Assembly (NCBI GenBank): GCA_028698185.1
Contig: JAQVDW010000011.1
Span: forward strand, 1 to 32,000
Origin: Erysipelotrichaceae bacterium
GTDB taxonomy: Bacteria; Bacillota_I; Bacilli_A; Erysipelotrichales; Coprobacillaceae
Length of the DNA: 32,000 nt
Direction: 5' to 3'
In this document: in pieces, positions 4,708-31,979 of the stretch
How the letters are laid out: each line of letters begins with the position of its first letter
Position numbering within the stretch: position 1 is the first letter of the stretch
The notes under the pieces: model-generated
Database searches by the model: none
Seen by the model: only the letters and a program-made list of their open reading frames with translations
What the model was told of the DNA's origin: nothing
Position numbers and translations under genes: made by a program

Positions 4708-6174
4708 ATGCACTACAGACACGAACCAAGATTTCCAGATAATTTCATGTGGGGAGCCTCTTCGGCAGCCTGGCAGGTGGAGGGAGCGACAGCTAAGGGT
4801 GGCAGAACCCCGGCCATCATCGATTTGAACTCGAAGAAGAAAAAGCCGTTCGCGGACAACTCGATCGCTTCGGACCACTACCATCACTACAAGGAAGACG
4901 TGGCCTTGATGGCCGAATGCGGCTTCAGCTCTTACCGTTTCTCGCTTTCATGGTCAAGAATCATCCCCAATGCCGACCGCAAAGTGAATCCGGAAGGGTT
5001 GGATTTCTATAATAATCTTATCGACGAACTGGTAAAAAACAACATTGCCCCGATTGTGACACTTTACCATTACGACATGCCTTGCTGGCTGGAAGAGAAA
5101 TACGGGGGTTGGCTCAACCGCGGTGTGATCGAGGAGTTCGAATACTACAGCAAAGTGTGCTTCGAACATTTCGGTGACCGGGTCAAATACTGGCTGTCGA
5201 TCAATGAACAGAACATGCAGATTGTCTATGGCGACTGGCTGGGAGTATCCAAAGGCTGCGACAACTGGTTTGAACAGAAATGGCAGATCAACCATATCAT
5301 GAACCTGTGTCATGCCAAAGCGGTCATCGCCTGCCATGAAATGGTCGAGGGTGGCAAAATCGGTCCGGTTCCGGGAATGGTTCCGATCTATCCCGAAACA
5401 TGCAGACCGCTAGACCAGATTGCTGCCATGAACGCCGAGGAATTCACGGAAAAAATCTGGAATGACACCTATGTTTTCGGGAAGTACAGCAATTTCGTTA
5501 AGAACTACTGGAAAAACAACAATATCGACCCCAAAATCATGGAAGGGGACGAAGAGCTCATGGCCCAAGCCAAAATCGATTTCTTCGCGGTCAACTGCTA
5601 CCGCTCGAATACGGCCAAGGACGCGCCATTGGATGCAGAGCCTAGGGAATATCTGCTAAACAAGGATGGCAAAAAGGGTGGACTGCAGTTCCCGGTCAAT
5701 CCAGGCGAGTTCGCCCTGACTGCCAACCCGTATGTGGAAACTACCGACTGGGATTGGGAAATCGATCCGGGTTCTTTAAGATATACTTTGCGTTACATGT
5801 GGGACCATTACCAGTTGCCGATGATGATCACCGAAAACGGCTTCGGTATGCACGAATCTCTAGGAGAAGACGGGAAGATCCATGACCAGGCCCGGATTGA
5901 CTTTTTGCGCGACAACATCTATCAGGTCGGTCTGGCAATCGAAGATGGCTGCGAGGTGTGGGGCTACAACCCATGGTCATTCACCGATCTTCTTTCAACG
6001 GGAAATGGGATGGCCAAACGGTACGGGCTGGTGTATGTCGACGTCACTGACGAACAGATCAACCAGGCTCAAGACATCAGTGAACTGAGCCTGAAACGGA
6101 TCAGAAAAGATTCATTCTATTGGTACTCTAAGCTAATCAAGTCAAACGGAAAAGACTGGGGAAGGGACGATTAA
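4708..6174 (+). CDS. 6-phospho-beta-glucosidase (glycoside hydrolase family 1)
   Basis: N-terminal FPDNFMWGASSAAWQVEG; LSINEQN (acid/base Glu); ITENGFG (nucleophile Glu); KRYGLVYVD. GGAGG is the RBS. Confidence 0.92.
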   Translation: MHYRHEPRFPDNFMWGASSAAWQVEGATAKGGRTPAIIDLNSKKKKPFADNSIASDHYHHYKEDVALMAECGFSSYRFSLSWSRIIPNADRKVNPEGLDFYNNLIDELVKNNIAPIVTLYHYDMPCWLEEKYGGWLNRGVIEEFEYYSKVCFEHFGDRVKYWLSINEQNMQIVYGDWLGVSKGCDNWFEQKWQINHIMNLCHAKAVIACHEMVEGGKIGPVPGMVPIYPETCRPLDQIAAMNAEEFTEKIWNDTYVFGKYSNFVKNYWKNNNIDPKIMEGDEELMAQAKIDFFAVNCYRSNTAKDAPLDAEPREYLLNKDGKKGGLQFPVNPGEFALTANPYVETTDWDWEIDPGSLRYTLRYMWDHYQLPMMITENGFGMHESLGEDGKIHDQARIDFLRDNIYQVGLAIEDGCEVWGYNPWSFTDLLSTGNGMAKRYGLVYVDVTDEQINQAQDISELSLKRIRKDSFYWYSKLIKSNGKDWGRDD

Positions 6175-6175
6175 T

Positions 6176-8005
6176 ATGGCTAAAGACTATAAAGCGATCG
6201 CCGATGCGATTGTTGAAAGAAGCGGCGGATTGAATAATATCGCCGGGGTGACCCACTGCATGACCAGGTTGCGCCTGCAAATCCGCAATGGCGGCGATTT
6301 TGACGCCGAAGCGATCAAGAAGATTCCAGGAGTGTTGAATGTCATCATCCAGAACGGCGAACATCAGATTGTCATCGGGCAGGATGTGCCCAATCTGTAT
6401 GCCCAATTCCAGAAGTTCGACATTGCCACCGGTGATGCCAGCGGACCTGCAAGCAAGGCACCCAAAGGCAAAAAAGCCATAGTCGGTGCGGTCCTCTCAT
6501 TTATCGGGGGAACGTTCGCTCCGGTAATTCCGGTATTGATTGCCGGCGGGCTGACCGGTGCGGTCCTGACCCTGCTTACCAATTTCTTCGGGGTGACGAC
6601 TGATTCGGGCACATATACGATAATCTATGCCATAAATCAGGCGACATTCTACTTCCTGCCGCTGTTCATCGGATTTTCGGCAGCGACCCGGCTCAAGACC
6701 GATGGCTATCTTGGAGCATTCGTGGGAGCCATCCTGCTTTATTCGACCATAAACAATGCCGAAGGTCTATCGTTCTTTGGCATCCAGGTGGCCCAGGTGG
6801 CCTACAACTCGACCGTATTCCCGATAATCCTGGGCGTGCTGTTCATGTCGGTTGTCTACAAGACACTCCAGAAATACACGCCAACGGTACTTAAGACAAT
6901 CTTCGTGCCCTTGGCGACGATCCTGATTACCGTGCCGGTTACCTTATTGGTGCTCGGTCCAATCGGCGGGATCATGGGTTCTTGGCTGGCTGGTGGCGTA
7001 TTTGCCATCTACCGGGCGGTTCCGGCCCTGGCGGTAATGATCATCGGTATCGCAACTCCATTGATGGTTTTCTTTGGCATGAACAATGCCACTTATCCGG
7101 TGGTTTTCGCTTTGCTGGCGGAAGTCGGTTCCGACCCGCTGGTGTGTACCGGGATGGCTCCAGCCAATGTGGCTGTGGGCGGTGCCTGTCTTGCGGCGGC
7201 GCTGCTCGCCAGAAACGTCAATGACAAATCAGTATCGATTTCAGCCGGAATCACGGCCCTTTGCGGAATCACCGAACCCGGGGTCTATGGAGTCCTTTTC
7301 CCGAAAACCTACCCGTTAATCGGGGCGATGATCGGTGGGGGGATCGGAGGACTGATGGCCGGACTGCTGGGAATGACCCAGTTTGTCATCTCGACTCCCG
7401 GTTTCATCTCATTGCCGGCCTACATCAATCCAGACGGGACCAACGGCAACCTGATCATCTCGATTGCGGTAATGCTTGTGGCGGTGACTGGCGGTTTTGG
7501 CTTCACCTATGTGCTAGGCAAAAGATTCGGAAAGAAAAATCCGGCCAACGAAGTCTATGATGACAACGAGATAATCGCGATGGCCAACGGGAAATCGATC
7601 GCCCTGGAGACTGTGAAAGATGAAATGTTCGCTTCCAAATCGCTGGGCGATGGAGTGGCTTTCGAACTCAAGGACGGGAAGATATGTGCTCCGGCCAATG
7701 GCAGACTGGATGTGCTTTTCCCGACCGGCCATGCCTTTGGGATCACCATGAACACCGGTGTCGAACTTTTGTGCCATATTGGAATCAACACGGTCGAAAG
7801 CAACGGCAAGGGATTTAAACTGCTAAATAAGGAGGGGAACGAAGTAAAAGCCGGCGATCCGATTGTCGAAGTCGATCTAGCCAAACTGAAAGAATCATAT
7901 GACATGACAACGATGCTTATCGTGACCAATCCAAATGATAAACAAGTCAACTTCTTTAAAGATGAACAAGTCAAGCAACTCCAGGTGATTGGATTTGTGA
8001 AATAG
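6176..8005 (+). CDS. PTS beta-glucoside-family transporter, EIIBCA fusion
   Basis: The EIIB motif VTHCMTRLRL is at the N-terminus. A long polytopic EIIC core follows. The C-terminal EIIA-Glc-type domain carries FPTGHAFGI and LCHIGINTV. The gene starts 1 nt after the GH1 stop. Confidence 0.9.
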   Translation: MAKDYKAIADAIVERSGGLNNIAGVTHCMTRLRLQIRNGGDFDAEAIKKIPGVLNVIIQNGEHQIVIGQDVPNLYAQFQKFDIATGDASGPASKAPKGKKAIVGAVLSFIGGTFAPVIPVLIAGGLTGAVLTLLTNFFGVTTDSGTYTIIYAINQATFYFLPLFIGFSAATRLKTDGYLGAFVGAILLYSTINNAEGLSFFGIQVAQVAYNSTVFPIILGVLFMSVVYKTLQKYTPTVLKTIFVPLATILITVPVTLLVLGPIGGIMGSWLAGGVFAIYRAVPALAVMIIGIATPLMVFFGMNNATYPVVFALLAEVGSDPLVCTGMAPANVAVGGACLAAALLARNVNDKSVSISAGITALCGITEPGVYGVLFPKTYPLIGAMIGGGIGGLMAGLLGMTQFVISTPGFISLPAYINPDGTNGNLIISIAVMLVAVTGGFGFTYVLGKRFGKKNPANEVYDDNEIIAMANGKSIALETVKDEMFASKSLGDGVAFELKDGKICAPANGRLDVLFPTGHAFGITMNTGVELLCHIGINTVESNGKGFKLLNKEGNEVKAGDPIVEVDLAKLKESYDMTTMLIVTNPNDKQVNFFKDEQVKQLQVIGFVK

Positions 8006-13277: not shown

Positions 13278-13323
13278 TAACAGGTAACGCTTGGAATGTA
13301 TGACAGTTAATCGGGGGTGCCTT

Positions 13324-14205
13324 ATGGATGAGATTTTTGACAGAATAAAAGACCAGCTGGGTCTTTTCAATGCAATGTACGATGTTGTCCGGATAGTTGA
13401 TCCGATCAGAAAAATAGCGTATCTCATGGACGATTCCGGTCTTGATATTACTAAGAGTGTCTGCCATGGTTTCTGGCAAAAGGGTTCTCCCTGTGACAAC
13501 TGTATCTCGATGCGGGCCATAGAGACAAAAAAGGCGACCACCAAGATTGAAATAAAAGGCGATGTGGTTTATCTTATCCAGGCCCTGCCGCTGGATGTGG
13601 CCGGGGATGGTTATGTGGTCGAGATTCTCAAGGACATAACTTCGGAGAAAATTTTCTACCTGGACAGCCAGCAGCCCAACAATCTCCAGGATTACATTTT
13701 CAAGATAAATTCACAGCTGGTCATTGATCCTCTGACAAAAATATACAACCGTCGCTACATCGACGAGCGCTTTCCAGGTGATCTAAGCCGGATTGGTGAA
13801 AATGACAGAGGCATGGTCATGGCATTCGGGGATATCGACCATTTCAAGAATGTCAACGACACGTATGGCCATCTGGCGGGCGATTATGTATTGAAGACTG
13901 TTGCTTCCATAATCAAGGATTCCATCCGGGAGACAAGTGACTGGACAGCCCGTTATGGGGGCGAGGAGTTCCTGATTGTCCTTAACAACGTAAAAGAGGA
14001 AAAGGCGATGAAGATTATTGAAAGTTTGCGGGAAAAGATAGCGGACTTCGATTTTCTTTTCGACAACGAGAGAATCAGGGTGACGTGCAGCTTTGGACTT
14101 GTCGCCGTTTTAGACAACAAAGGCAGTTTCGAGGAATTGTTCAAGATTGCGGATGACAATCTGTATCAGGCCAAAATCAAGGGCCGCAATCAAAGTGTGA
14201 TATAG
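13324..14205 (+). CDS. Diguanylate cyclase (GGDEF) with an N-terminal Cys-rich sensor domain
   Basis: Motifs seen: DPLTKIYNRRY, GDIDHFKNVNDTYGHLAGD, RYGGEEF and YQAKIKGRNQ. The start is taken as the ATG at 13324, after GGGGGTG. The N-terminal roughly 120 aa carry CH-x8-C-x2-C. Confidence 0.88.
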   Translation: MDEIFDRIKDQLGLFNAMYDVVRIVDPIRKIAYLMDDSGLDITKSVCHGFWQKGSPCDNCISMRAIETKKATTKIEIKGDVVYLIQALPLDVAGDGYVVEILKDITSEKIFYLDSQQPNNLQDYIFKINSQLVIDPLTKIYNRRYIDERFPGDLSRIGENDRGMVMAFGDIDHFKNVNDTYGHLAGDYVLKTVASIIKDSIRETSDWTARYGGEEFLIVLNNVKEEKAMKIIESLREKIADFDFLFDNERIRVTCSFGLVAVLDNKGSFEELFKIADDNLYQAKIKGRNQSVI

Positions 14206-14212
14206 GAGTATT

Positions 14213-16261
14213 ATGGCAAATAAAAAAAGAGAGAGAATCATCCTGGCCAGATACAAGCTGGGATTTACAACCAATCCCCTCAGGATAATATTCATGTACC
14301 TAGTCGTCGGCTTTGGCTGGATATTCATGTCCGACACAATGCTTTATGCGCTGGCGCTTGACAAGGGCGTAAGTGCCACTCTGCAATCCTATAAGGGTTT
14401 TCTTTATGTGCTGATAACCGCTTTTTTGATGTATGTGATCATCAAGAAGGATTACAAGCGTATCCTTGATCTGACAGCCAGTGTGGCCTTGAAAAACGAG
14501 GAGCTCACCGAGTATTCCAATGACCTGGAGGTCGCCAAAGAAATGCTGGTAAGACAGCTGGGTGCTTTGAACGACTCGCTGGATACGATCAATGCCCACA
14601 AGGATTTTTCCCAGGCGATTTATGACAATACCAACGCCGCAATCGTGACGATGAGCATCGACGGGGATATCCTGGATTACAATCAGTGTTTCACCGACCT
14701 TTTTGGCTATGCGCCCGGGGAAATCGTCAACCAGAAGTGGCACGAATTCCTGGCCAATCATGATGAGTTTCTCATCTCCAGCCTGCGCGAGCGGCTCCAT
14801 AGCGACAAAATCATCAACAACTATGAATGCCAGGCAAAGACGAAGGATGGCCGGTTGCTCGAGATTGTCTGGAACAACAACCTAATCAAGGACCCCAACT
14901 CCAATGGGACGGTGGTCATCTGCATCGGAATCGACCGGACCAGTGAAAAGCAGACCGAAAGGCGCATTTACGAGCTGGCCTTCAAGGACCGGCTGACCAA
15001 ACTCGACAACCAGCTGGTGTTCGAACGCCAGGTCGCAAAGCTGATTGAAAAGGGCCTTGATTTCACCCTGTATTATCTCGATTTCGACAACTTCCGGAAT
15101 CTCAATGACATCCATGGCCATTATTACGGTGATTGTTTCTTGCAGGATTATGCCAGGATGTTGCAGGAAAGTTTCGAAACAATCGAAGTTTTCCGTTTTG
15201 GCGGCGATGAGTTCATGCTTCTCGATAGAAACAGCGATGCACTCCACGCAAACCATGTCCTGTCATCGCTGTTCAAAAATACCAGCCGGTCTTATGTCTA
15301 TGACGATTTCAGCTACTATCCGTCAATCAGCGTCGGGGTGGTCAAGTATCCTGAAGACGGCAATGATTGGGATACGATATTCAAAAATATCGACCTGGCG
15401 CTTTACAAGGCCAAGACCAAAGGGAAAAACCAGGCGGTAAAATTCCACAGGGAGATCCAATTCGAGATCGAAACAAAGATCAGGATTGAAAACGGCATCC
15501 GCCAGATGCTGCTAAATGACGACTTCATCTCATATTACCAGCCAATCTATGATTTCGATGACCAGGAAATTGCCGGGGTCGAGTCGCTGCTGCGCTGGGA
15601 CAGGTCGATTCTTGATTGCAACCCGGCCCAGCTGGTCAGTGTGGCGGAACAGACCGGCCAGATCATCAAGATTGACCGCTGGGTGATTGACAACAGCTTC
15701 AGGTTCATGGCCGAGAATCTTCAGTCAACCAGAATAACGATGTCGATCAACCTGTCGACAAAAACCATCGAATCTGCGGGGATGATGGAGTTTTTGCTCA
15801 AAAAGCTAAGCGTCCACGGCATCGATCCGGCCCGGATCATTTTTGAAATCACTGAACATTCCTTGTTCGACGATATCGAATTCAGCCGCTACCAGGTCAA
15901 GAAGCTCAAGGCAATCGGCTTCAAAATCGCCCTTGATGACTTCGGGACCCGCTATTCGTCCTTGAACTACCTCAAAAATCTCGAGTTCGACCGGCTGAAA
16001 ATAGACAAGGAGTATATCGACAAGATCAATGAATCCCAAAATGACCGGGTCATTGTCGAGCAGATCATAACCCTGGCAAACAAGCTCGACATCGAGACAG
16101 TCGCCGAGGGGATCGAATGTCCCGAGCAGTTTGCACAGATCAAGTCGATGGGCTGCACCTATGCCCAGGGCTATCTCCTTGCCAGACCTCAATGCCCGGA
16201 TGACCTGCTTGCACTTTTGAATGAGGAAAACGAAAAAAGTCCTAATCATTTATCTGATTAA
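14213..16261 (+). CDS. Membrane-anchored PAS-GGDEF-EAL c-di-GMP turnover protein
   Basis: Two N-terminal TM segments, a coiled coil and a PAS region (AIVTMSIDGDILDYNQCFTDLFGY). The GGDEF domain has RFGGDEF. The EAL domain has QPIYD, ESLLRW, INLS, EITE, DDFGTRYSSL, KIDK, VAEGIE and QGY. TAGGAG is the RBS, 7 nt after the upstream stop. Confidence 0.88.
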   Translation: MANKKRERIILARYKLGFTTNPLRIIFMYLVVGFGWIFMSDTMLYALALDKGVSATLQSYKGFLYVLITAFLMYVIIKKDYKRILDLTASVALKNEELTEYSNDLEVAKEMLVRQLGALNDSLDTINAHKDFSQAIYDNTNAAIVTMSIDGDILDYNQCFTDLFGYAPGEIVNQKWHEFLANHDEFLISSLRERLHSDKIINNYECQAKTKDGRLLEIVWNNNLIKDPNSNGTVVICIGIDRTSEKQTERRIYELAFKDRLTKLDNQLVFERQVAKLIEKGLDFTLYYLDFDNFRNLNDIHGHYYGDCFLQDYARMLQESFETIEVFRFGGDEFMLLDRNSDALHANHVLSSLFKNTSRSYVYDDFSYYPSISVGVVKYPEDGNDWDTIFKNIDLALYKAKTKGKNQAVKFHREIQFEIETKIRIENGIRQMLLNDDFISYYQPIYDFDDQEIAGVESLLRWDRSILDCNPAQLVSVAEQTGQIIKIDRWVIDNSFRFMAENLQSTRITMSINLSTKTIESAGMMEFLLKKLSVHGIDPARIIFEITEHSLFDDIEFSRYQVKKLKAIGFKIALDDFGTRYSSLNYLKNLEFDRLKIDKEYIDKINESQNDRVIVEQIITLANKLDIETVAEGIECPEQFAQIKSMGCTYAQGYLLARPQCPDDLLALLNEENEKSPNHLSD

Positions 16262-16268
16262 GACTTTT

Positions 16269-18794
16269 TTAGCTTTCAATTTCGATGACGGGAACGATTT
16301 TCTGTTTGCGGACCAGCTCGGCAAAGATGACGGCCAGTTCCGGATCGAATTGCGTTCCGGCATTTTTTTCGATTTCTTTCAAGGCGAATTCCAAAGGACG
16401 GACTTCCTTGTATGAGCGTTTCGACAACATCGCATCGAAACTGTCGGCGATGCATAGAATCCGGGCAAACAACGGAATGTCATGGCCGCGGACTTTGCGG
16501 GGATATCCGTTGCCGTCCCAACGTTCATGGTGGCCGATAACCGCCGGAATTACGTAAGTCAAAGAAGGGATGTGCTTGATGATGGCGACCGAATTTTCCA
16601 CATGGGTCTGCATGATCATCCTTTCCTCGTCGCTCAAACGTCCATTTTTGTTGAGGATTTTTTCATCGATTCCAATCTTGCCGATATCATGAAGCAGGGC
16701 CGCTTCCTTGATTATCTCGATCGAATCCTTGTCCATGTTCAGACCATAGGCCAGTTCCGTCGCGTAGTAGCAGACATTGTTGGAGTGGCTGTAGGTGTAA
16801 TGGTCCTTGGTGTCGATGGCTGCCGTCAGGGCATGGATCATGGCTGCGTATTCCGAATAGATTTCGGCCTTGTGTTCGACTTCCTCATCGGGGTTTTCAT
16901 TCCGTTTGACGACCTGACCGGTCGATATCCGGATGCTGTCCTTGCCGGAACGCTTTACGTGGTAGATTGCCAGTTCGGCATCGTTGATCAGTTCGGTGGT
17001 ATTGTTGGCCAAAAACGGGATAGTCGAGATTCCAACGGAAACAGTGATCCGCTTCATTTTATAGTTTTCCCTTTTGGAATTGATCTGGTTGATCTGTTTG
17101 GAAATCTTTTGGGCGATCAGCCGAGTCTGGTTGACATCGTAATTCGGGAAGACACAGGCGAAGACCTTTGAATCGTAGCGGGCGCATATTCCAATGCCCT
17201 CCATATTGGCCTTCAGGATCCGGGCCACCTCGATAAGGACGTTGTCGCCCTCGTTGTAGCCGTAGAGCTGGTTGTAAAGCTTGAAGTCGTCGATGTTGAA
17301 AATGGCGATGGATAACAACCCATCATGTCTTTTCTTGTCGAGGTCTTTCAAGGCTGCCAGGAAGTATTTCCGGTTGAGCAGTTTGGTTAGGTCATCCTTG
17401 CGCGCTTCGTTGTATACCACCTCGTAAAGCTGGGCTTTTGACAGGGCGGTCGAAGAGATCAGGGAGATGTTTTCGAGGAAAACGATATCGTCATCGGTGA
17501 ACTTGGATGATTTGTTCTTGTGGGTCAGCATAAAGATACCCACCAGCTTGTCATCATCGATCAGGGGAACAAAATATTCGATATTTAGGTATGCGAGCTC
17601 CTTTTTTTCTTCGGTCCACATCGACTTGTAGGCATTTAGCTTCTTGAGATCATCGAGCAGGATGCAGTCGCCGGTGTTGTTTAGCAGGGTGACCAGGGGA
17701 TTGTTGAGCTCGAGTCTAAAGTCGATCTGGTTGAGCGGGTTGCTTGTGGCTACCACCTTGAAATAGTCTTTTTTTTCATCGGGAAGGAGAATGTAGATTT
17801 CTTTTAGACCAAGCGCATCTTTGATGACATTGACAATCAGCCGGGATATTTCTTTTACCTGAAGGCTGGAAAAGGCGTTGTTTTTGAACTCTTTGAGGAT
17901 ATTGGTGCGAATGGTGTCATCGGAAATGTAGATCCGGTTGATGAAAAGCTCCAGGAAGCGGTAGAGTACAAATGCGAATAGAGTGAACAATACCGCAATG
18001 ATGATTATTTGGTTGTCTTTTGGCACCAGGAGGATCTGGTCGAGCAGCCGTTCCAAGGCACTGGTAGAGTTCAACAGGACTATAAAAGAAATCAGACCTG
18101 AAAACCCGTAGATCACCCATTTTGATATCAGTAAATCAAGTTTGAACAGTTTGTTTTTATAGAGGGTGTAGAACAGGATGAAGACGAAGACGATACTCGA
18201 TAGAATATCGATAGGGAAACCCTGGATAAAAGGTACGACAGTCAACACGTTTCCAAGAAACAAGATCAAAAGACCAAGTTTGACCGGATTCAGGGCGCTG
18301 ATTGGAGTGTTGTCGCTGTGATTCTTTCCAAAGAGAATCAATAGAATATTGGCGATGATTGCCCCAGTGACAATGAAGAAGAACACCACGAGCCATGTCG
18401 TCTCGTAGATAAAGACAGTCTTGTTTGCGATGACAGTCGGTGTCGGGCTGGCCAAAAACATCCCGTTGTAGGTGTTGATTGCCATGAGAATAAGGCACAG
18501 TCCCAATAAGATGTAATCAAGCATCGTGCTTTTCATTCCGACAAGATTCTTGACGAATTTTAGAAGCACGTATGGAGCCATAACGATCCCGAACAAGGAA
18601 ATGTCATACCAGAACTTCACCATTCCAAGATACTGGGTCCGCATCAACAACGAACCGCCGCACCAGAGAGTGAAAATTACAAGAAAGGCAATGAATGAAT
18701 TGATGGCCGGGTTTTTCTTGGCTGCCAAAAATGCCAGCAGCAGGAAGCTGTAGCAGGAAACGGCGATTATAGGTATTATTGTAGAATCAATCAT
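16269..18794 (-). CDS. 7TM-GAF-GGDEF(degenerate)-HD-GYP c-di-GMP phosphodiesterase/sensor
   Basis: The N-terminal region of about 290 aa has roughly 7-8 TM segments. A GAF-like segment follows (IYILLPDEK...YFVPLIDDDKLVGIFMLTH). The GGDEF fold (LTKLLNRKYF, IDDFKLYNQLYGYNEGD) carries RYDSKVF in place of RxGG(D/E)EF. The HD-GYP domain has HDIGKIGI and HHERWDGNGYP. Confidence 0.85.
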   Translation of the reverse strand: MIDSTIIPIIAVSCYSFLLLAFLAAKKNPAINSFIAFLVIFTLWCGGSLLMRTQYLGMVKFWYDISLFGIVMAPYVLLKFVKNLVGMKSTMLDYILLGLCLILMAINTYNGMFLASPTPTVIANKTVFIYETTWLVVFFFIVTGAIIANILLILFGKNHSDNTPISALNPVKLGLLILFLGNVLTVVPFIQGFPIDILSSIVFVFILFYTLYKNKLFKLDLLISKWVIYGFSGLISFIVLLNSTSALERLLDQILLVPKDNQIIIIAVLFTLFAFVLYRFLELFINRIYISDDTIRTNILKEFKNNAFSSLQVKEISRLIVNVIKDALGLKEIYILLPDEKKDYFKVVATSNPLNQIDFRLELNNPLVTLLNNTGDCILLDDLKKLNAYKSMWTEEKKELAYLNIEYFVPLIDDDKLVGIFMLTHKNKSSKFTDDDIVFLENISLISSTALSKAQLYEVVYNEARKDDLTKLLNRKYFLAALKDLDKKRHDGLLSIAIFNIDDFKLYNQLYGYNEGDNVLIEVARILKANMEGIGICARYDSKVFACVFPNYDVNQTRLIAQKISKQINQINSKRENYKMKRITVSVGISTIPFLANNTTELINDAELAIYHVKRSGKDSIRISTGQVVKRNENPDEEVEHKAEIYSEYAAMIHALTAAIDTKDHYTYSHSNNVCYYATELAYGLNMDKDSIEIIKEAALLHDIGKIGIDEKILNKNGRLSDEERMIMQTHVENSVAIIKHIPSLTYVIPAVIGHHERWDGNGYPRKVRGHDIPLFARILCIADSFDAMLSKRSYKEVRPLEFALKEIEKNAGTQFDPELAVIFAELVRKQKIVPVIEIES

Positions 18795-20409
18795 ATTTTA
18801 CCCCCATATACTCTCCGACTCGTTGCTGGATATCGACCAGATCCCGGATCTCATATTTCGATGGATTGAATGATTTGACCGGTTTTTGATAGACCTGTTG
18901 ATATTTTTCGAAAGTTCCACAGCGAAGGATCGTAATCTCCAAAGGATCCATTTCGAGAATCTGCTTGAGCGATTCATAATCGGAATCGATGTAGCGGAAA
19001 TAGATTCCCAGCTGGCATTGGAGAATATCTTTAAGGTATGCCGAATCAATCAGGGTGCTCGAGTCGAGTTCGACATACATATGCAATAATGGTTTGTTGT
19101 TCTGGTTATATTCCTTGACGATGGAATAATTCTTGATGTCCAGGTTGGCAAGAGCGATGACATTGTCGATCAGATCCTTGGTGATCCGGGTGAACCCGGC
19201 AATGTCGATCACATCAGGGGCCCGGTCGACGAACTTGAACCGGGGAATGCCCAGTTCACTTTTACCCACGCATTTGTAGACATCCTTGACACGGTAGCGC
19301 ATGAACGCCCCGCCTTTTAAAACTGAAATGACCAGTTCATAAATTCCATCGACTTCCAGTTCATTGAAAAGGTAAGTTTTGGGATTGTAGTTCTCATCCT
19401 CGATGCACCGGTACATATCCGATTCCTTGATGAACTCATAGAAGCAGGTATCCGGGAAGAAATACATCCCGTTGCGGTTGAAATCCTCAGCTGCAATCAA
19501 TGACGGTTCGGTTCCTGCGAAAAGTTCCAAAGGAGCGATTCCCCACATCTGTTCAAGTTCATCCTTGTAACAGTCGCTGTCGGCTCCGGTTATCATGTAA
19601 CCCTTGAGCTTGAAAAAATCTTTGGGCATCAGCTCGCGGCCTTCTTCTTTGCATGTCTTTTTGGCTTTCAGGTAACGGAAAACCATCTTCAGCGGAATTT
19701 TCGTTTTCTTACCTGATCCTTTTGAACTTGAACCCCCTGAGCTCATTGAAGAAAAACTTTTTGAGATATAGTAGGCGACGGATGCCAATCCGAAGAAGTA
19801 ATCAATGCCTTTTTCCATCCCGAGCTTGAAACCTTCCTTGTTGCGTTCCTTGAAGCTCATGTTTTCCGCTTCCTCGACGTTTGGCAGGAATTCAATGTCG
19901 GTATGCATGGCTAAAGCCCGGGGCAACAGACCGGTCGCAAATGGCAAAGGCGCCAGGCCGTATAGGAACGTGTCGTCGTTTTCAACGGTGAATTCATATT
20001 TGCGACGTGAAGACGCGAGCATGACACAGGCCATTGTATTGTCGCGGAAAGTCTCAATCATCCCGCTTGTGTATGGTGCGAGTTTGACTGGATGTTTGCC
20101 ACCTTCCCAGGTCGTCTTGATCCAGATTACGGCTTTGGCAGGAAGAAGATCATCCCTTTTCAAAAGAAGGATGTCGGCATAATCCTGGTAATTTGTCAGC
20201 GGGAACTCTCTCCGGAATTCCTCGACGCTTGAAACTTCCTCTTTAAGCAAAGATTTCCCCAATGGCGATTTTTGCCATAATCTTAGCTGTTCTTTCATCA
20301 AGCGATTCTGGATCGCCATGAACTCATCTATTGTCAAATCCAAAAAGCCGCAGTACTGGTCCCATATTTCCTTTTTGCTTTTCGATTTGTAATCATCCTT
20401 AAAACTCAT
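18787..20409 (-). CDS. GH3-family (acyl-acid amido synthetase-like, adenylate-forming) protein
   Basis: 540 aa. By-eye matches to GH3 family blocks: FPLTNYQDYADIL; TTWEGGKHPVKLAPYT (where the P-loop would be); WGIAPLELFAGTE; YFFPDTCFYEFI; YELVISVLKGGAFMRYRVKDVYKCVG; PRFKFVDRAPDVIDIAG. AAGGAG is the RBS. It overlaps both neighbouring genes. Confidence 0.6.
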   Translation of the reverse strand: MSFKDDYKSKSKKEIWDQYCGFLDLTIDEFMAIQNRLMKEQLRLWQKSPLGKSLLKEEVSSVEEFRREFPLTNYQDYADILLLKRDDLLPAKAVIWIKTTWEGGKHPVKLAPYTSGMIETFRDNTMACVMLASSRRKYEFTVENDDTFLYGLAPLPFATGLLPRALAMHTDIEFLPNVEEAENMSFKERNKEGFKLGMEKGIDYFFGLASVAYYISKSFSSMSSGGSSSKGSGKKTKIPLKMVFRYLKAKKTCKEEGRELMPKDFFKLKGYMITGADSDCYKDELEQMWGIAPLELFAGTEPSLIAAEDFNRNGMYFFPDTCFYEFIKESDMYRCIEDENYNPKTYLFNELEVDGIYELVISVLKGGAFMRYRVKDVYKCVGKSELGIPRFKFVDRAPDVIDIAGFTRITKDLIDNVIALANLDIKNYSIVKEYNQNNKPLLHMYVELDSSTLIDSAYLKDILQCQLGIYFRYIDSDYESLKQILEMDPLEITILRCGTFEKYQQVYQKPVKSFNPSKYEIRDLVDIQQRVGEYMGVKYD

Positions 20410-20968
20410 AATTTTCTCCTTTTAATATAACCCTTTTTACCGAACTGTAGGTAGGGATTAGAAATGGGACTTCCTGTTTGTATTCCTGATAGTCGCAAAA
20501 TACCCTGACAAAAGTGAAATTGTCCTGGATGACGATGTAGATCAGGTTCATCAGTGACGAAATTGATGCGAACAATGTGAACGTGAAATCATTGAAAACG
20601 AATATCAGGCAGACATACATCAGAATGAACCACAAAACTCCGATATGTCGTGATAAGCCATACATTCCTGTTCTTATGGTCTTGGTCTGGTTGAACGAGA
20701 CATAGGTCGCCTCAAACGGCAAGGCGAAAAACAGGGTGTAAATAAGCAAACTTAAAAATATAAGCGCGCAGCCGATCAAAACGATTGTCGAGCTGGTAAA
20801 AGCAATGGCATTTTTGAGCCGGAAAATCATCACGACATTGGTGATTGTGAAAATCACACTGGCCAAAAGGAAAAGTTTGTCAAGCCAGTGATTCTTGATT
20901 GTGACACTGTTGATGTCATAGATGATATAAAGACTAAAAACTCCGATTGCAACAAGGTAATAGATCAT
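20399..20968 (-). CDS. Polytopic membrane protein, ICMT/PEMT-like SAM-dependent carboxyl methyltransferase family
   Basis: 189 aa with about 5 TM segments. TGMYGLSRHIGVLWF resembles the GxYxxxRHPxY block. C-terminal DYQEYKQEVPFLIP resembles the EYxxYxxxVP tail. The start is taken as the ATG at 20968, after GGGGGAG. Confidence 0.5.
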   Translation of the reverse strand: MIYYLVAIGVFSLYIIYDINSVTIKNHWLDKLFLLASVIFTITNVVMIFRLKNAIAFTSSTIVLIGCALIFLSLLIYTLFFALPFEATYVSFNQTKTIRTGMYGLSRHIGVLWFILMYVCLIFVFNDFTFTLFASISSLMNLIYIVIQDNFTFVRVFCDYQEYKQEVPFLIPTYSSVKRVILKGENYEF

Positions 20969-21193
20969 AGCGCACTCCCCCAAAAATATGATAACACTAT
21001 TTTTAGTAATTTACTAATACTATCTTAAAAATATGCGCTTTTTCTATATTTTTTGTTCCTTTTCAAGAGGATATTTCGATTAATGTTACTTGGGCGTTCT
21101 AAAATAAACAAATGATTTTGTGAAAAAGACAAAATTATAAATTTCTTGTCAAGTAAAAATATTTTACATGTGTGACATAATTTAATAGTGAGT

Positions 21194-21238
21194 AACAAAA
21201 TCGATGAGAATTTGGTGCCCGGTTTCATCGATTTTGTT
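21194..21238. repeat. Perfect 14-bp inverted repeat (potential 14-bp stem hairpin) in an AT-rich spacer
   Basis: AACAAAATCGATGA (21194-21207) and TCATCGATTTTGTT (21225-21238) are exact reverse complements separated by 17 nt. TTG follows on the plus strand. Confidence 0.7.
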
Positions 21239-21328
21239 TTGAAAACGGATGTCAATGAAACAATGTTTCGTCAAAATCGCATCCGGACAAGAAAAGATGA
21301 AACGAAATTGAGAAGTTGGGTTGTGCCC

Positions 21329-21356
21329 TTTACAAAACATTTTAAAGTTCTACAAT
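21329..21356 (+). promoter_or_regulatory. Sigma-A type promoter of the second GH1 gene
   Basis: TTTACA (21329-21334), a 16-nt spacer, then TACAAT (21351-21356). It lies 25 nt upstream of the ATG, with a GGAGGA RBS in between. Confidence 0.5.
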
Positions 21357-21381
21357 GTAAGGAAGATAAGGAGGATTTACA

Positions 21382-31154: not shown

Positions 31155-31167
31155 ACGAATGAAAATA

Positions 31168-31272
31168 TAAGTCTTCAGGGCAGGGTTTGATTCCCGACCG
31201 GCGGTGACAGTCCGCGAGCGCAAGCTGAGTAGGTGCGATTCCTACACCGACAGTAAAGTCTGGATGGAAGAA
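31168..31272 (+). promoter_or_regulatory. FMN riboswitch (RFN element)
   Basis: GUCUUCAGGGCAGGGUUUGAUUCCCGACCGGCGGUGACAGUCCGCGAGC...CCGACAGUAAAGUCUGGAUGGAAGAAGA carries the conserved RFN blocks: AGGGCAGGGU, UUCCCGACCGGCGGU, AGUCCGCGAGC, CCGACAGU, AGUCUGGAUG and GAAGA closing P1. Confidence 0.9.
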
Positions 31273-31290
31273 GATATGACATCTTTTTTT
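31269..31290 (+). terminator. FMN riboswitch expression-platform terminator
   Basis: AGAAGAU-AUGAC-AUCUUUU hairpin followed by a U run. Its 5' arm overlaps the 3' strand of P1, so the two structures are mutually exclusive. Confidence 0.65.
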
Positions 31291-31343
31291 GCCGTTCATG
31301 GAGACAGGTCTTTTCATGATATTTTTATTTTAAGGAGATGTTT

Positions 31344-31979
31344 ATGGAAATTACGAAAACCAAAACTTTAGTAACCCTGGCCATGCTTTCGGCCCTGGGC
31401 GCGTTGTTGAACCTGATTGAGATCCCGTATCCATTGGCCCCATGGCTGATGATCGACCTGGCGGAAGTCGTGGTCCTGGTCGCCTTTTTGATGCACGGGT
31501 TCAAAGGCGGCCTGATCGTATCGGTGGCCAAATTCTTCGTTTCCCTGGTTATTAAAGGTCCGGTGGGACCATTTGGAATCGGGCAGATCACGGCATTGAT
31601 CGGTTCGCTGACGATCCTTGGCTTCTATATGTTATTCGACAAGGCGTTCAAGCACAAATATCTGCCGGCGATCATCGCGACGATGCTATGCTTTGCGACG
31701 GTCATGGTTGTGATCAACTACCTGTTTGTCACACCGACTTACCTGTCACAGAAATTCACATGGTACACCCAGCTGCCATATACGCTGGACATCAATGCCT
31801 TCAACGAGTATTTCAATATGAACCTGCCAAGCCTGGGCTTTCTGGGGTGGCTGGGACCTTATGGCGAGGCGATTTTCATCATCTACTTCCCTTTCAATCT
31901 GTTGAAAGGCCTGGTCACCGGATTTTTCTACCGCGTGCTAAGACCGGTCATCGTCAAAAACTTCATCAAGCAGGCCTAG
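31344..31979 (+). CDS. ribU: Riboflavin transporter RibU (ECF S-component)
   Basis: About 211 aa and 6 TM. LNLIEIPYPLAPWLMIDLAEVVVLVAFLMHGFKGG resembles the RibU/FmnP N-terminal block. It lies directly downstream of the FMN riboswitch. The start is taken as the ATG at 31344, 7 nt after AAGGAG. Confidence 0.8.
   Translation: MEITKTKTLVTLAMLSALGALLNLIEIPYPLAPWLMIDLAEVVVLVAFLMHGFKGGLIVSVAKFFVSLVIKGPVGPFGIGQITALIGSLTILGFYMLFDKAFKHKYLPAIIATMLCFATVMVVINYLFVTPTYLSQKFTWYTQLPYTLDINAFNEYFNMNLPSLGFLGWLGPYGEAIFIIYFPFNLLKGLVTGFFYRVLRPVIVKNFIKQA

Follow-up and report, generated by a model that had tools for sequence, protein, structure and literature searches.

On the minus strand of a 32,000-nucleotide stretch of an Erysipelotrichaceae bacterium genome (assembly GCA_028698185.1, contig JAQVDW010000011.1, positions 1 to 32,000; hereafter the window), three overlapping genes, which we call g1, g2 and g3, form one operon coding for a self-contained membrane-associated module. 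In the open reading frame (ORF) listing, g1 encodes a 189-amino acid membrane protein (20968..20399, from an ATG start); g2 encodes a 540-amino acid GH3-type adenylate-forming enzyme of the ANL superfamily (20409..18787), as judged from the ORF listing, Pfam and fold; and g3 encodes an 841-amino acid multi-pass membrane sensor phosphodiesterase (18794..16269), as judged from Pfam and its orthologues, whose substrate should be cyclic dimeric guanosine monophosphate (c-di-GMP). Because the trio is conserved across loci that differ in their flanks and keep their junctions, the cassette is a real, widely conserved module, and we rate it as a c-di-GMP phosphodiesterase of the sensor type that has its own, dedicated pair of enzymes, a pair without precedent. 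To our knowledge, the signals to which c-di-GMP enzymes respond are mostly unknown, especially in Gram-positive anaerobes. Here, a candidate signal-handling enzyme pair adjoins the sensor in every locus examined, so that what the HD-GYP protein senses becomes directly testable.

Conservation of the Three-Gene Cassette

To survey the cassette, a pattern scan of one genome per species was used, which returned 409 stretches encoding g2 relatives; ORFs were called in the best 80 of these loci (52-85% identity), and the proteins of the window trio served as queries against them. Where the contig reaches, a g1-like ORF lies directly upstream of g2 and a full-length g3-like ORF directly downstream of it, on the same strand, in 80/80 loci, and the g3 orthologues directly following g2 score 600-1470 bits in all loci long enough. 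The first-pass annotation of this DNA, made from the sequence alone, had set neighbor conservation beforehand as a test of its proposal, and the outcome was decisive, the trio standing together in every related locus seen. The same trio was recovered when the search began from distant g1 relatives, and in metagenomes the full trio is present on the sole contig long enough to hold it (L093), with the g1-g2 pair on shorter contigs.

The organisms carrying the cassette are mostly Clostridia and Coprobacillaceae, and their families comprise Coprobacillaceae, Lachnospiraceae (Enterocloster, Coprococcus, Blautia, Faecalicatena, and Lacrimispora), Anaerovoracaceae, Oscillospiraceae, Peptococcaceae and a few others. 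Cultured carriers, both gut and environmental, include Enterocloster clostridioformis, E. citroniae, E. lavalensis, Coprococcus comes, Faecalicatena contorta, Lacrimispora saccharolytica, Anaerovorax odorimutans and Parasporobacterium paucivorans, and the window proteins themselves are 99-100% identical to those of an Erysipelotrichaceae metagenome-assembled genome. The flanking genes are unrelated between annotated loci and a conserved fourth gene was not found, no further gene family being common to more than 17 loci. The genes overlap or nearly touch at their junctions in the 68 loci compared, most often with spacings of -4 and -11 nucleotides between g1 and g2 and of -4 and -8 nucleotides between g2 and g3. 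Moreover, the pairwise divergences of g1, g2 and g3 are correlated (r 0.76-0.86, by a statistic that ignores species phylogeny), which fits inheritance as a unit. In the literature searched, we found no published description of the cassette or of a GH3/HD-GYP combination, in agreement with the initial remark that no described bacterial system of this composition was known to its author.

In two loci the g3 orthologue is split into two ORFs (L066 8627-11170, Coprococcus comes; L067 8632-11168, Frisingicoccus), which could be due to a frameshift, pseudogenization or sequencing error.

Architecture of the Operon

Read directly in the window sequence, g1 and g2 overlap by 11 nucleotides and g2 and g3 by 8 nucleotides (ATGATTGA). 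Each of the three start codons is preceded, 6 nucleotides before the ATG, by a ribosome-binding site: GGGGGAG for g1 (20981-20975), AAAGGAG for g2 (20422-20416) and GGGGG for g3 (18805-18801). An alternative TTG start for g1 at 20983 was rejected, since it lies upstream of the GGGGGAG Shine-Dalgarno sequence, and the ATG at 20968, which is correctly spaced, is preferred. Inside the cluster, promoter-like sites (11 versus 9.9 expected by chance) and terminator-like sites (7 versus 6.0 expected by chance) occur without excess. The sole strong hairpin of the cluster scan is a terminator-like structure on the minus strand directly 3' of the g3 stop (16270-16233; 16-bp stem, 6-nucleotide loop, and T-rich tail), which could also serve a convergent gene ending at 16261. 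The overlaps, the Shine-Dalgarno sites and internal signals at chance level thus bear out the overlapping three-gene operon of the first-pass annotation at these coordinates, and its check for separate promoters and terminators within the cluster yielded only chance-level matches and the one strong hairpin after g3.

Upstream of g1 lies a 413-nucleotide AT-rich region, read from the sequence (20969..21381, minus strand), that is common to g1 and a divergent GH1 gene. An extended -10-like site (TG-n-TATCAT, 20996-20988) is present upstream of g1; a consensus scan found no minus-strand sigma-70 site in 20969..21381, and a promoter upstream of g1 is something we only infer. No Rfam family matched the region upstream of g1, and there is no riboswitch for the cassette in the window.

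A Sensor Phosphodiesterase with a Degenerate GGDEF Domain

The four domains of g3 are all encoded on the minus strand. At the N-terminus, residues 12-219 (18138..18761) match the HisKA_7TM region (PF16927, E 2.4e-7, 31.3 bits versus a cut-off of 28.6), hydrophobic segments continue past it to about residue 290, and W44, GGS (46-48) and FPIDIL are conserved within the transmembrane region. A GAF domain follows at residues 312-445 (17460..17861; GAF_2 E 5.4e-7, GAF E 2.1e-5), then a degenerate GGDEF domain at residues 466-619 (16938..17399; Pfam GGDEF E 9e-30) and an HD-GYP domain at residues 658-820 (16335..16823; Pfam HD_5 E 2.4e-37).

Among the 71 g3 sequences compared, the GGDEF site reads RYSGKEF in 49 and GG[DE]EF in none (RYDSKVF in the window, residues 539-545), and no RxxD I-site is present. 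The domain retains an N...D pair (DDFKLYNQLYG..EGD), whose residues we take to be contacts to the guanine of GTP. The HD-GYP motifs of the window protein are LHDIGK (701-706) and HHERWDGNGYP (755-765); LHD[IV]GK is kept in 71/71 sequences and every listed HHER.DG.GYP variant is intact. Judging from these motifs, g3 should degrade c-di-GMP rather than make it, and the degenerate GGDEF domain is presumably regulatory. The seven-transmembrane (7TM) region, GAF, degenerate GGDEF and intact HD-GYP domains that were initially read by eye are therefore all recovered by Pfam and by the 71 sequences.

Pfam detected no receiver or histidine-kinase domain in g1, g2, or g3, and a domain search detected no PilZ or I-site c-di-GMP-binding feature in g1 or g2. 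A homologue search with the sensor half of g3 gave three matches, its word index probably having been saturated by hydrophobic words. An assignment of the cassette to anti-phage defense was rejected, as PADLOC gave just generic HD-domain noise.

A GH3-Type Enzyme with a Rebuilt Motif I

The g2 protein matches the three Pfam GH3 models (PF03321, PF23571, and PF23572; gathering cut-off 23.6 bits for each), with GH3_M at 2e-11 (44.2 bits), the GH3 N-terminal model at 9.6e-6 (25.5 bits) and GH3_C at 2.2e-5 (25.5 bits), and a profile of the g2 family reaches the sequences of plant GH3 crystal structures at E 3e-8 to 1e-3. An AlphaFold2 model of g2 (predicted local distance difference test, pLDDT, 80.2; predicted template modeling score, pTM, 0.83), compared with the PDB using Foldseek, gave E values of 1e-20 to 1e-15 against structures of the PaaK-like and GH3 kinds (PaaK-like E 3e-20, GH3.15 E 3e-17), and JAR1 is its best length-normalized match (template modeling score 0.65). 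As modeled, g2 is a GH3-type two-domain adenylate-forming fold, and its first placement in GH3 withstands both the Pfam and the structural comparison. The family is conserved to an unusual degree, with a mean pairwise identity of 65% across orders (68 loci).

An exception is motif I (P-loop), which in g2 is rebuilt as TTWEGGKHPVK at residues 99-109 (20083..20115, minus strand) and was located by motif order and a weak alignment; in this weak, non-significant alignment stretch its counterpart in AtGH3.15 is TSSGTSGGVPK. Of the canonical motif, g2 retains the two hydroxyl residues at the start and the Lys at the end (K109), and W and E replace G and T. TTWEGG is invariant in our g2 alignment (A1) and present in 79/80 g2 orthologues, and the near-invariance of the rebuilt loop speaks for selection on its function and against decay. 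By motif order, T100 would correspond to S115 of OlsH, a bacterial GH3-like N-acyl-ornithine synthase; the only motif-I residue for which a requirement has been demonstrated in OlsH is S115, the S115A variant being inactive (PMC12493201).

Motifs II and III are kept. Motif II (FAGTEP, 297-302) and motif III (YRVKD, 372-376), encoded at 19282..19521 of the minus strand (residues 297-376), were recognized from invariant columns of A1, namely F297, A298, G299, T300, E301, P302, Y372, R373 and D376. Across the 80 orthologues motif III reads RYRVGD in 66, RYRCGD in 11 and RYRIKD in 2, with RYRVKD in the window. A DR...IDIAGF block, which we read as the ANL hinge motif, is likewise invariant in A1. 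On these grounds g2 is likely a real enzyme.

One g2 homologue (P0152, 727 amino acids) contains an internal duplication of ~190 residues, with PLKVAPYT...ELEKMWGIRP repeated, that is probably an assembly artifact.

A Membrane Protein of ICMT/PEMT Descent

The AlphaFold2 model of g1 (pLDDT 80.8) contains five long helices, at residues 2-22, 27-54, 59-82, 103-125 and 128-156, and the segments TGMYGLSRHIGVLWF and DYQEYKQEVPFLIP, which the first-pass annotation had quoted, are both found in the protein. The g1 family is large (1026 cluster representatives in a full-library profile search), and its relationships emerge from its members: 20/32 g1 relatives match PEMT and 13/32 match ICMT in Pfam, with P0022 and P0025 above the PEMT cut-off and P0019 above the DUF1295 cut-off. 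Similarly, in the catalytic C-terminal half, hhalign matched the g1 family alignment (A2) to an ICMT alignment (91.2% probability, E 9.8e-7), aligning the blocks GxYxxxRH(P) and F..Y..YKK..P. The ICMT alignment was composed of human ICMT, Tribolium and Methanosarcina sequences; the human sequence was checked by its E 1e-80 match to 5V7P.

The GxYxxxRH(P) signature of g1, GMYGLSRHIG at residues 101-110 (20639..20668, minus strand), aligns to GIYKNIRHPMY of the Methanosarcina enzyme Ma-ICMT. Among 79 g1 orthologues, G101 is conserved in 77 and Y103, R107 and H108 in all 79, and position 109 is Pro in 76/79, with Ile solely in the window clade. The second block, QD...F...F..Y..Y at residues 148-163 (20480..20527, minus strand), is the counterpart of EE..L...FG..Y..Y in ICMT, with Q148 kept in 76/79 orthologues, D149 in 77/79, and Y160 and Y163 in 78/79. 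The Tyr of RHPxY is Val or Leu in the g1 family, and g1 departs from the RHPxY...EE consensus, which is said to have been described for Ste14p by Romano and Michaelis. From these alignments we conclude that g1 descends, as a remote relative, from the ICMT/PEMT lipid-enzyme fold. Because the ICMT signature is altered, we do not class g1 as a methyltransferase.

Against PDB sequences, P0022 alone matched nothing and the g1 family profile gave just a short chance-level match to transmembrane helix 7 (TM7) of YetJ. At the level of residues, the conserved N-terminal YDxN helix of g1 (residues 1-27, 20888-20968) resembles the last helix of YetJ (4PGR, YDLN) at E 0.03, which is chance level, and the likeness is probably convergent.

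Gene Fusion and Neighboring Genes

A natural g1-g2 fusion of 692 amino acids, recovered as seven sequence variants from independent assemblies, implies that g1 and g2 work together, with g2 positioned at the face of the g1 C-terminus. In the annotated examples (P0294/P0395; L090 6001-8079 and L091 2159-4237) the g2 part is 48% identical to window g2 and keeps TTWEGG, a CNNM-CBS-CorC gene lies upstream, a DUF4160/DUF2442 pair lies downstream in L090, and no HD-GYP gene is adjacent. Since there is no g3 beside the fusion, we take the g1-g2 pair to be the core of the system, to which the main clade has added the phosphodiesterase. The fusion also corrects the initial proposal that the enzymes are stoichiometrically coupled to the sensor, which does not hold universally. 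A metagenome scan seeded with the fusion found just ordinary unfused cassettes.

In addition to the trio, ten Lachnospiraceae loci (L027, L028, L038, L039, L047, L056, L064, L069, L071, and L074) carry a DegV-family gene upstream of g1 on the same strand, at a median gap of 4 nucleotides, giving a four-gene operon in part of this family (in the three DegV proteins scanned, Pfam E values ran from 1e-52 to 1e-75). Fatty acids are bound by DegV/FakB proteins, and this adjacency is a hint at a lipid link of the cassette, as is the use of free fatty acids by OlsH (PMC12493201).

A scan of 86 sources with a riboswitch model built for this analysis identified a c-di-GMP-I riboswitch directly upstream of g1 in Parasporobacterium paucivorans DSM 15970 (L077 6265-6349, 60.6 bits), which suggests c-di-GMP feedback on the cassette in this species. 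As a general regulator of the cassette the riboswitch was rejected, since it directly precedes the cassette solely in L077 among these sources. Elsewhere, L037 has a c-di-GMP-I riboswitch ~2 kb upstream, before a 614-amino acid ORF with a lipoprotein-like signal sequence, and L020 has a tandem c-di-GMP-I riboswitch pair ~6 kb upstream.

Several further genes were noted around the cassette. In the window, a GGDEF protein with an RYGGEEF site (13291-14205, plus strand) and a PAS-GGDEF-EAL protein (14213-16261, plus strand; RFGGDEF, EAL region ESLLR) point toward the trio and are convergent with it; both of these c-di-GMP genes are also annotated in a Coprobacillaceae relative (L001) and were not seen in the other annotated loci. 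On a metagenomic contig (L088), a FliB_C gene (flagellin lysine methylase-like; 5777-6877) lies directly upstream of the cassette and a DegV gene ~4 kb upstream. At the far end of the window, a flavin mononucleotide riboswitch (31167-31279, plus strand; RF00050, 107.8 bits, E 2e-24) precedes an ORF at 31338..31979 and is unrelated to the trio.

Proposed Mechanism and Alternative Explanations

The explanation we favor, with a confidence that stops somewhat short of even, is that a membrane-docked g1-g2 pair has as its substrate a lipophilic carboxylate, which is probably a fatty acid, and that the phosphodiesterase senses this substrate or the product. As a first step, cytoplasmic g2 would activate the lipophilic carboxylate, for which a free fatty acid or an acid resembling one is most plausible, and pass the acyl group to a nucleophile in the manner of plant GH3 enzymes and OlsH. 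As a second step, g2 would be physically associated with g1, an association that the fusion supports, and the conserved, cytoplasm-facing pocket of g1 (GxYxxxRH(P)...QD...YxxY) might, in chemistry that is conjectural, either modify the product further or present a membrane-resident substrate or acceptor. As a third step, g3, located in the same membrane, would detect the substrate or product via its transmembrane region and/or its GAF domain; this would alter HD-GYP activity, with the GGDEF domain regulatory, such that local c-di-GMP would track the lipid-like compound.

A number of observations weigh against this explanation. The canonical motif I, (S/T)SGT(S/T)xGxxK, is not matched by g2, and because its motif I is non-canonical the use of ATP is not assured. 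In g1, the EE pair of ICMT is Q148-D149, with one acidic residue kept, and in the window clade RHP has become RHI with the loss of the Pro. Window g1 has no Pfam match to ICMT (PF04140) or PEMT (PF04191), its sole match being DUF2542 (E 0.03), and Foldseek retrieved no match for the g1 model in the PDB, including 4A2N and 5V7P. The ICMT/PEMT placement first suggested for g1 consequently fails at face value for the window protein but is upheld by homology at the family level (hhalign 91%), and of the ICMT-like blocks on which it drew, GxYxxxRH and Y..Y are kept, whereas RHI, Val/Leu and Q-D are replacements. Furthermore, with no g3 beside the fusion, the enzyme pair does not inherently come with sensing by g3, and the DegV adjacency is confined to Lachnospiraceae and may reflect one or two evolutionary events. 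Finally, as we see it, adjacency of genes cannot tell input from output.

The strongest alternative is that the enzymes are the output or partner of a sensor responding to something unrelated to g1-g2, for example the state of the membrane, a compound from the host or the diet, or GTP sensed through the degenerate GGDEF domain; the operon would then only ensure that a drop in c-di-GMP coincides with the production, or the control by direct contact, of a lipid-remodeling enzyme pair. We consider this possible, if rather unlikely. It would accommodate the fusion without an adjacent g3, which indicates that the enzyme pair has its own function, as well as the complete sensor set (7TM and GAF) that g3 possesses in its own right and the retention, in its degenerate GGDEF domain, of the N...D positions presumed to contact the guanine of GTP. 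The invariant order and overlapping junctions in ~70 loci from several orders are, however, tighter than simple co-regulation usually requires, and with no c-di-GMP-binding domain in g1 or g2 there is no visible route from c-di-GMP to the enzymes. In favor of such an output, OlsH-type GH3 enzymes produce structural membrane lipids, not signals (PMC12493201).

We regard as doubtful, a shade more so than the preceding alternative, the possibility that g1 and g2 are pseudoenzymes acting as co-receptors, adenylation having been lost from g2 and methyl transfer from g1, and both serving as ligand-binding scaffold subunits that, docked on g3, gate its HD-GYP domain. The substitution of TTWEGG for (S/T)SGT(S/T)xG, the altered ICMT signature of g1 (EE to QD, and RHP to RHI in the window clade) and the lack of a Pfam match for window g1 could all be read in this way; similarly, the 65% conservation of g2 would suit multiple protein interfaces, and overlapping junctions would favor equal output of the subunits of a complex. 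Nevertheless, FAGTEP, YR.GD and DR...IDIAGF are invariant in g2, T100 and K109 are kept, and TTWEGG is near-invariant and shows no decay, pointing to selection for a role in catalysis or in binding the substrate. The candidate pocket of g1 is also conserved (R107/H108 in 79/79, Y160/Y163 in 78/79, and D149 in 77/79 orthologues), and a fusion that occurs without an adjacent g3 means that the pair cannot be an accessory of g3 alone. That the three genes lack any functional link and are neighbors merely by descent or hitch-hiking is highly improbable and already contradicted by conservation, given an order, strand and overlaps kept in 80/80 loci of different orders with unrelated flanks, and given the g1-g2 gene fusion.

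Implications of a Possible Link between Lipid Sensing and c-di-GMP Turnover

The favored explanation, in which the g1-g2 pair handles a fatty acid or similar carboxylate that g3 senses, has a more ambitious form, which we put forward as speculation with the chances rather against it: the cassette may unite, in one self-contained unit, the synthase and the receptor of a lipid-derived signal of a new class, in anaerobic Bacillota of which many come from gut or rumen samples. In this form, g2 docked on g1 might produce (or use up) an acyl conjugate that is soluble in the membrane and derives from free fatty acids, possibly those of the host or the diet, a proposition that we likewise hold to be improbable at present. 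Candidates for the conjugate would be an N-acyl amino acid and an N-acylated lipid head group or its ester. With no greater confidence, g3 might be a dedicated receptor that turns the conjugate directly into c-di-GMP turnover. If this synthase-receptor form is true, enzymes that produce a ligand would for the first time be seen as a pair hard-wired to an HD-GYP phosphodiesterase, and the cassette might reveal new chemistry for the GH3 and ICMT folds.

c-di-GMP controls motility and attachment, and should the substrate prove to be a fatty acid from the host or the diet, the module would tie lipid availability to behaviors under c-di-GMP control. Independent of its substrate, the cassette adds to bacterial GH3 biology a large clade of Bacillota proteins whose motif I is unprecedented and near-invariant, and it identifies in the g1 family (more than 1000 cluster representatives) an ICMT/PEMT offshoot with an altered cofactor signature.

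Comparison with Known Systems

By analogy, OlsH is a closer precedent for the enzyme pair than the diffusible signal factor (DSF) system and its ligase RpfB. In ornithine-lipid synthesis, OlsH N-acylates ornithine with ATP, Mg2+ and free fatty acids (PMC12493201), and in Singulisphaera acidiphila its gene adjoins that of the lipid N-methyltransferase OlsG, which N-methylates the product (PMC12493201, PMC12971839). The Ols operon and the cassette are alike in pairing a bacterial GH3-like enzyme with a lipid-modifying partner gene, g2 and OlsH belong to the same Pfam family, and T100 of g2 matches, by motif order, the essential S115. In contrast to g2 with its TTWEGGKHPVK, OlsH has a canonical motif I (TSGTTQGATK). 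The alpha/beta-hydrolase O-acyltransferase OlsI was not seen beside the cassette in the window and annotated loci, and the Ols operon is not reported to include a c-di-GMP enzyme, whereas the cassette adds one. The two systems also differ in phylum, with Ols in Planctomycetota and Bacteroidota and the cassette in Bacillota; just five Firmicutes sequences were sampled in the OlsH survey (PMC12493201). In the literature searched, we found no characterized bacterial GH3-like enzyme besides OlsH (2025).

Plant GH3 enzymes (JAR1, GH3.5, GH3.6, GH3.12, and GH3.15) share with g2 their Pfam domains, the two-domain ANL fold, equivalents of motifs II and III and an N-terminal helical segment (Pfam GH3, residues 29-79). 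They differ in that g2 is only 13-16% identical to them in structural alignments, has a rebuilt motif I, and is partnered with a membrane protein to which it is fused in one lineage. With the ICMT enzymes (Ste14, Ma-ICMT 4A2N, and Tribolium 5V7P) and PEMT, g1 shares its size (189 amino acids versus 194 in Ma-ICMT), five predicted long helices, the aligned GxYxxxRHP and F..Y..YKK..P blocks and the Pfam matches of its relatives, whereas Q-D stands in place of EE, Val/Leu in place of Tyr, and in the window Ile in place of Pro.

In the Rpf/DSF system of Xanthomonas, the adenylate-forming ligase RpfB is linked genetically to the HD-GYP phosphodiesterase RpfG, and RpfB, which is FadD-type, turns the DSF signal over and does not make it. 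The cassette resembles this system in logic alone, with chemistry of a fatty-acid type tied to an HD-GYP domain. Unlike Rpf, it has no conserved RpfF crotonase-type synthase and no RpfC/RpfG two-component pair, its sensor and HD-GYP domain reside on one polypeptide, and g2 is GH3-type, not FadD-type. In the Phc system of Ralstonia, the methyltransferase PhcB makes 3-OH fatty acid methyl esters, which are sensed by PhcS. PhcB, which we understand to be a soluble methyltransferase, differs in this respect from the membrane protein g1, and its readout is a two-component phosphorelay rather than c-di-GMP; nonetheless, Phc provides a precedent for a methyl-esterified fatty acid signal encoded beside its own membrane sensor.

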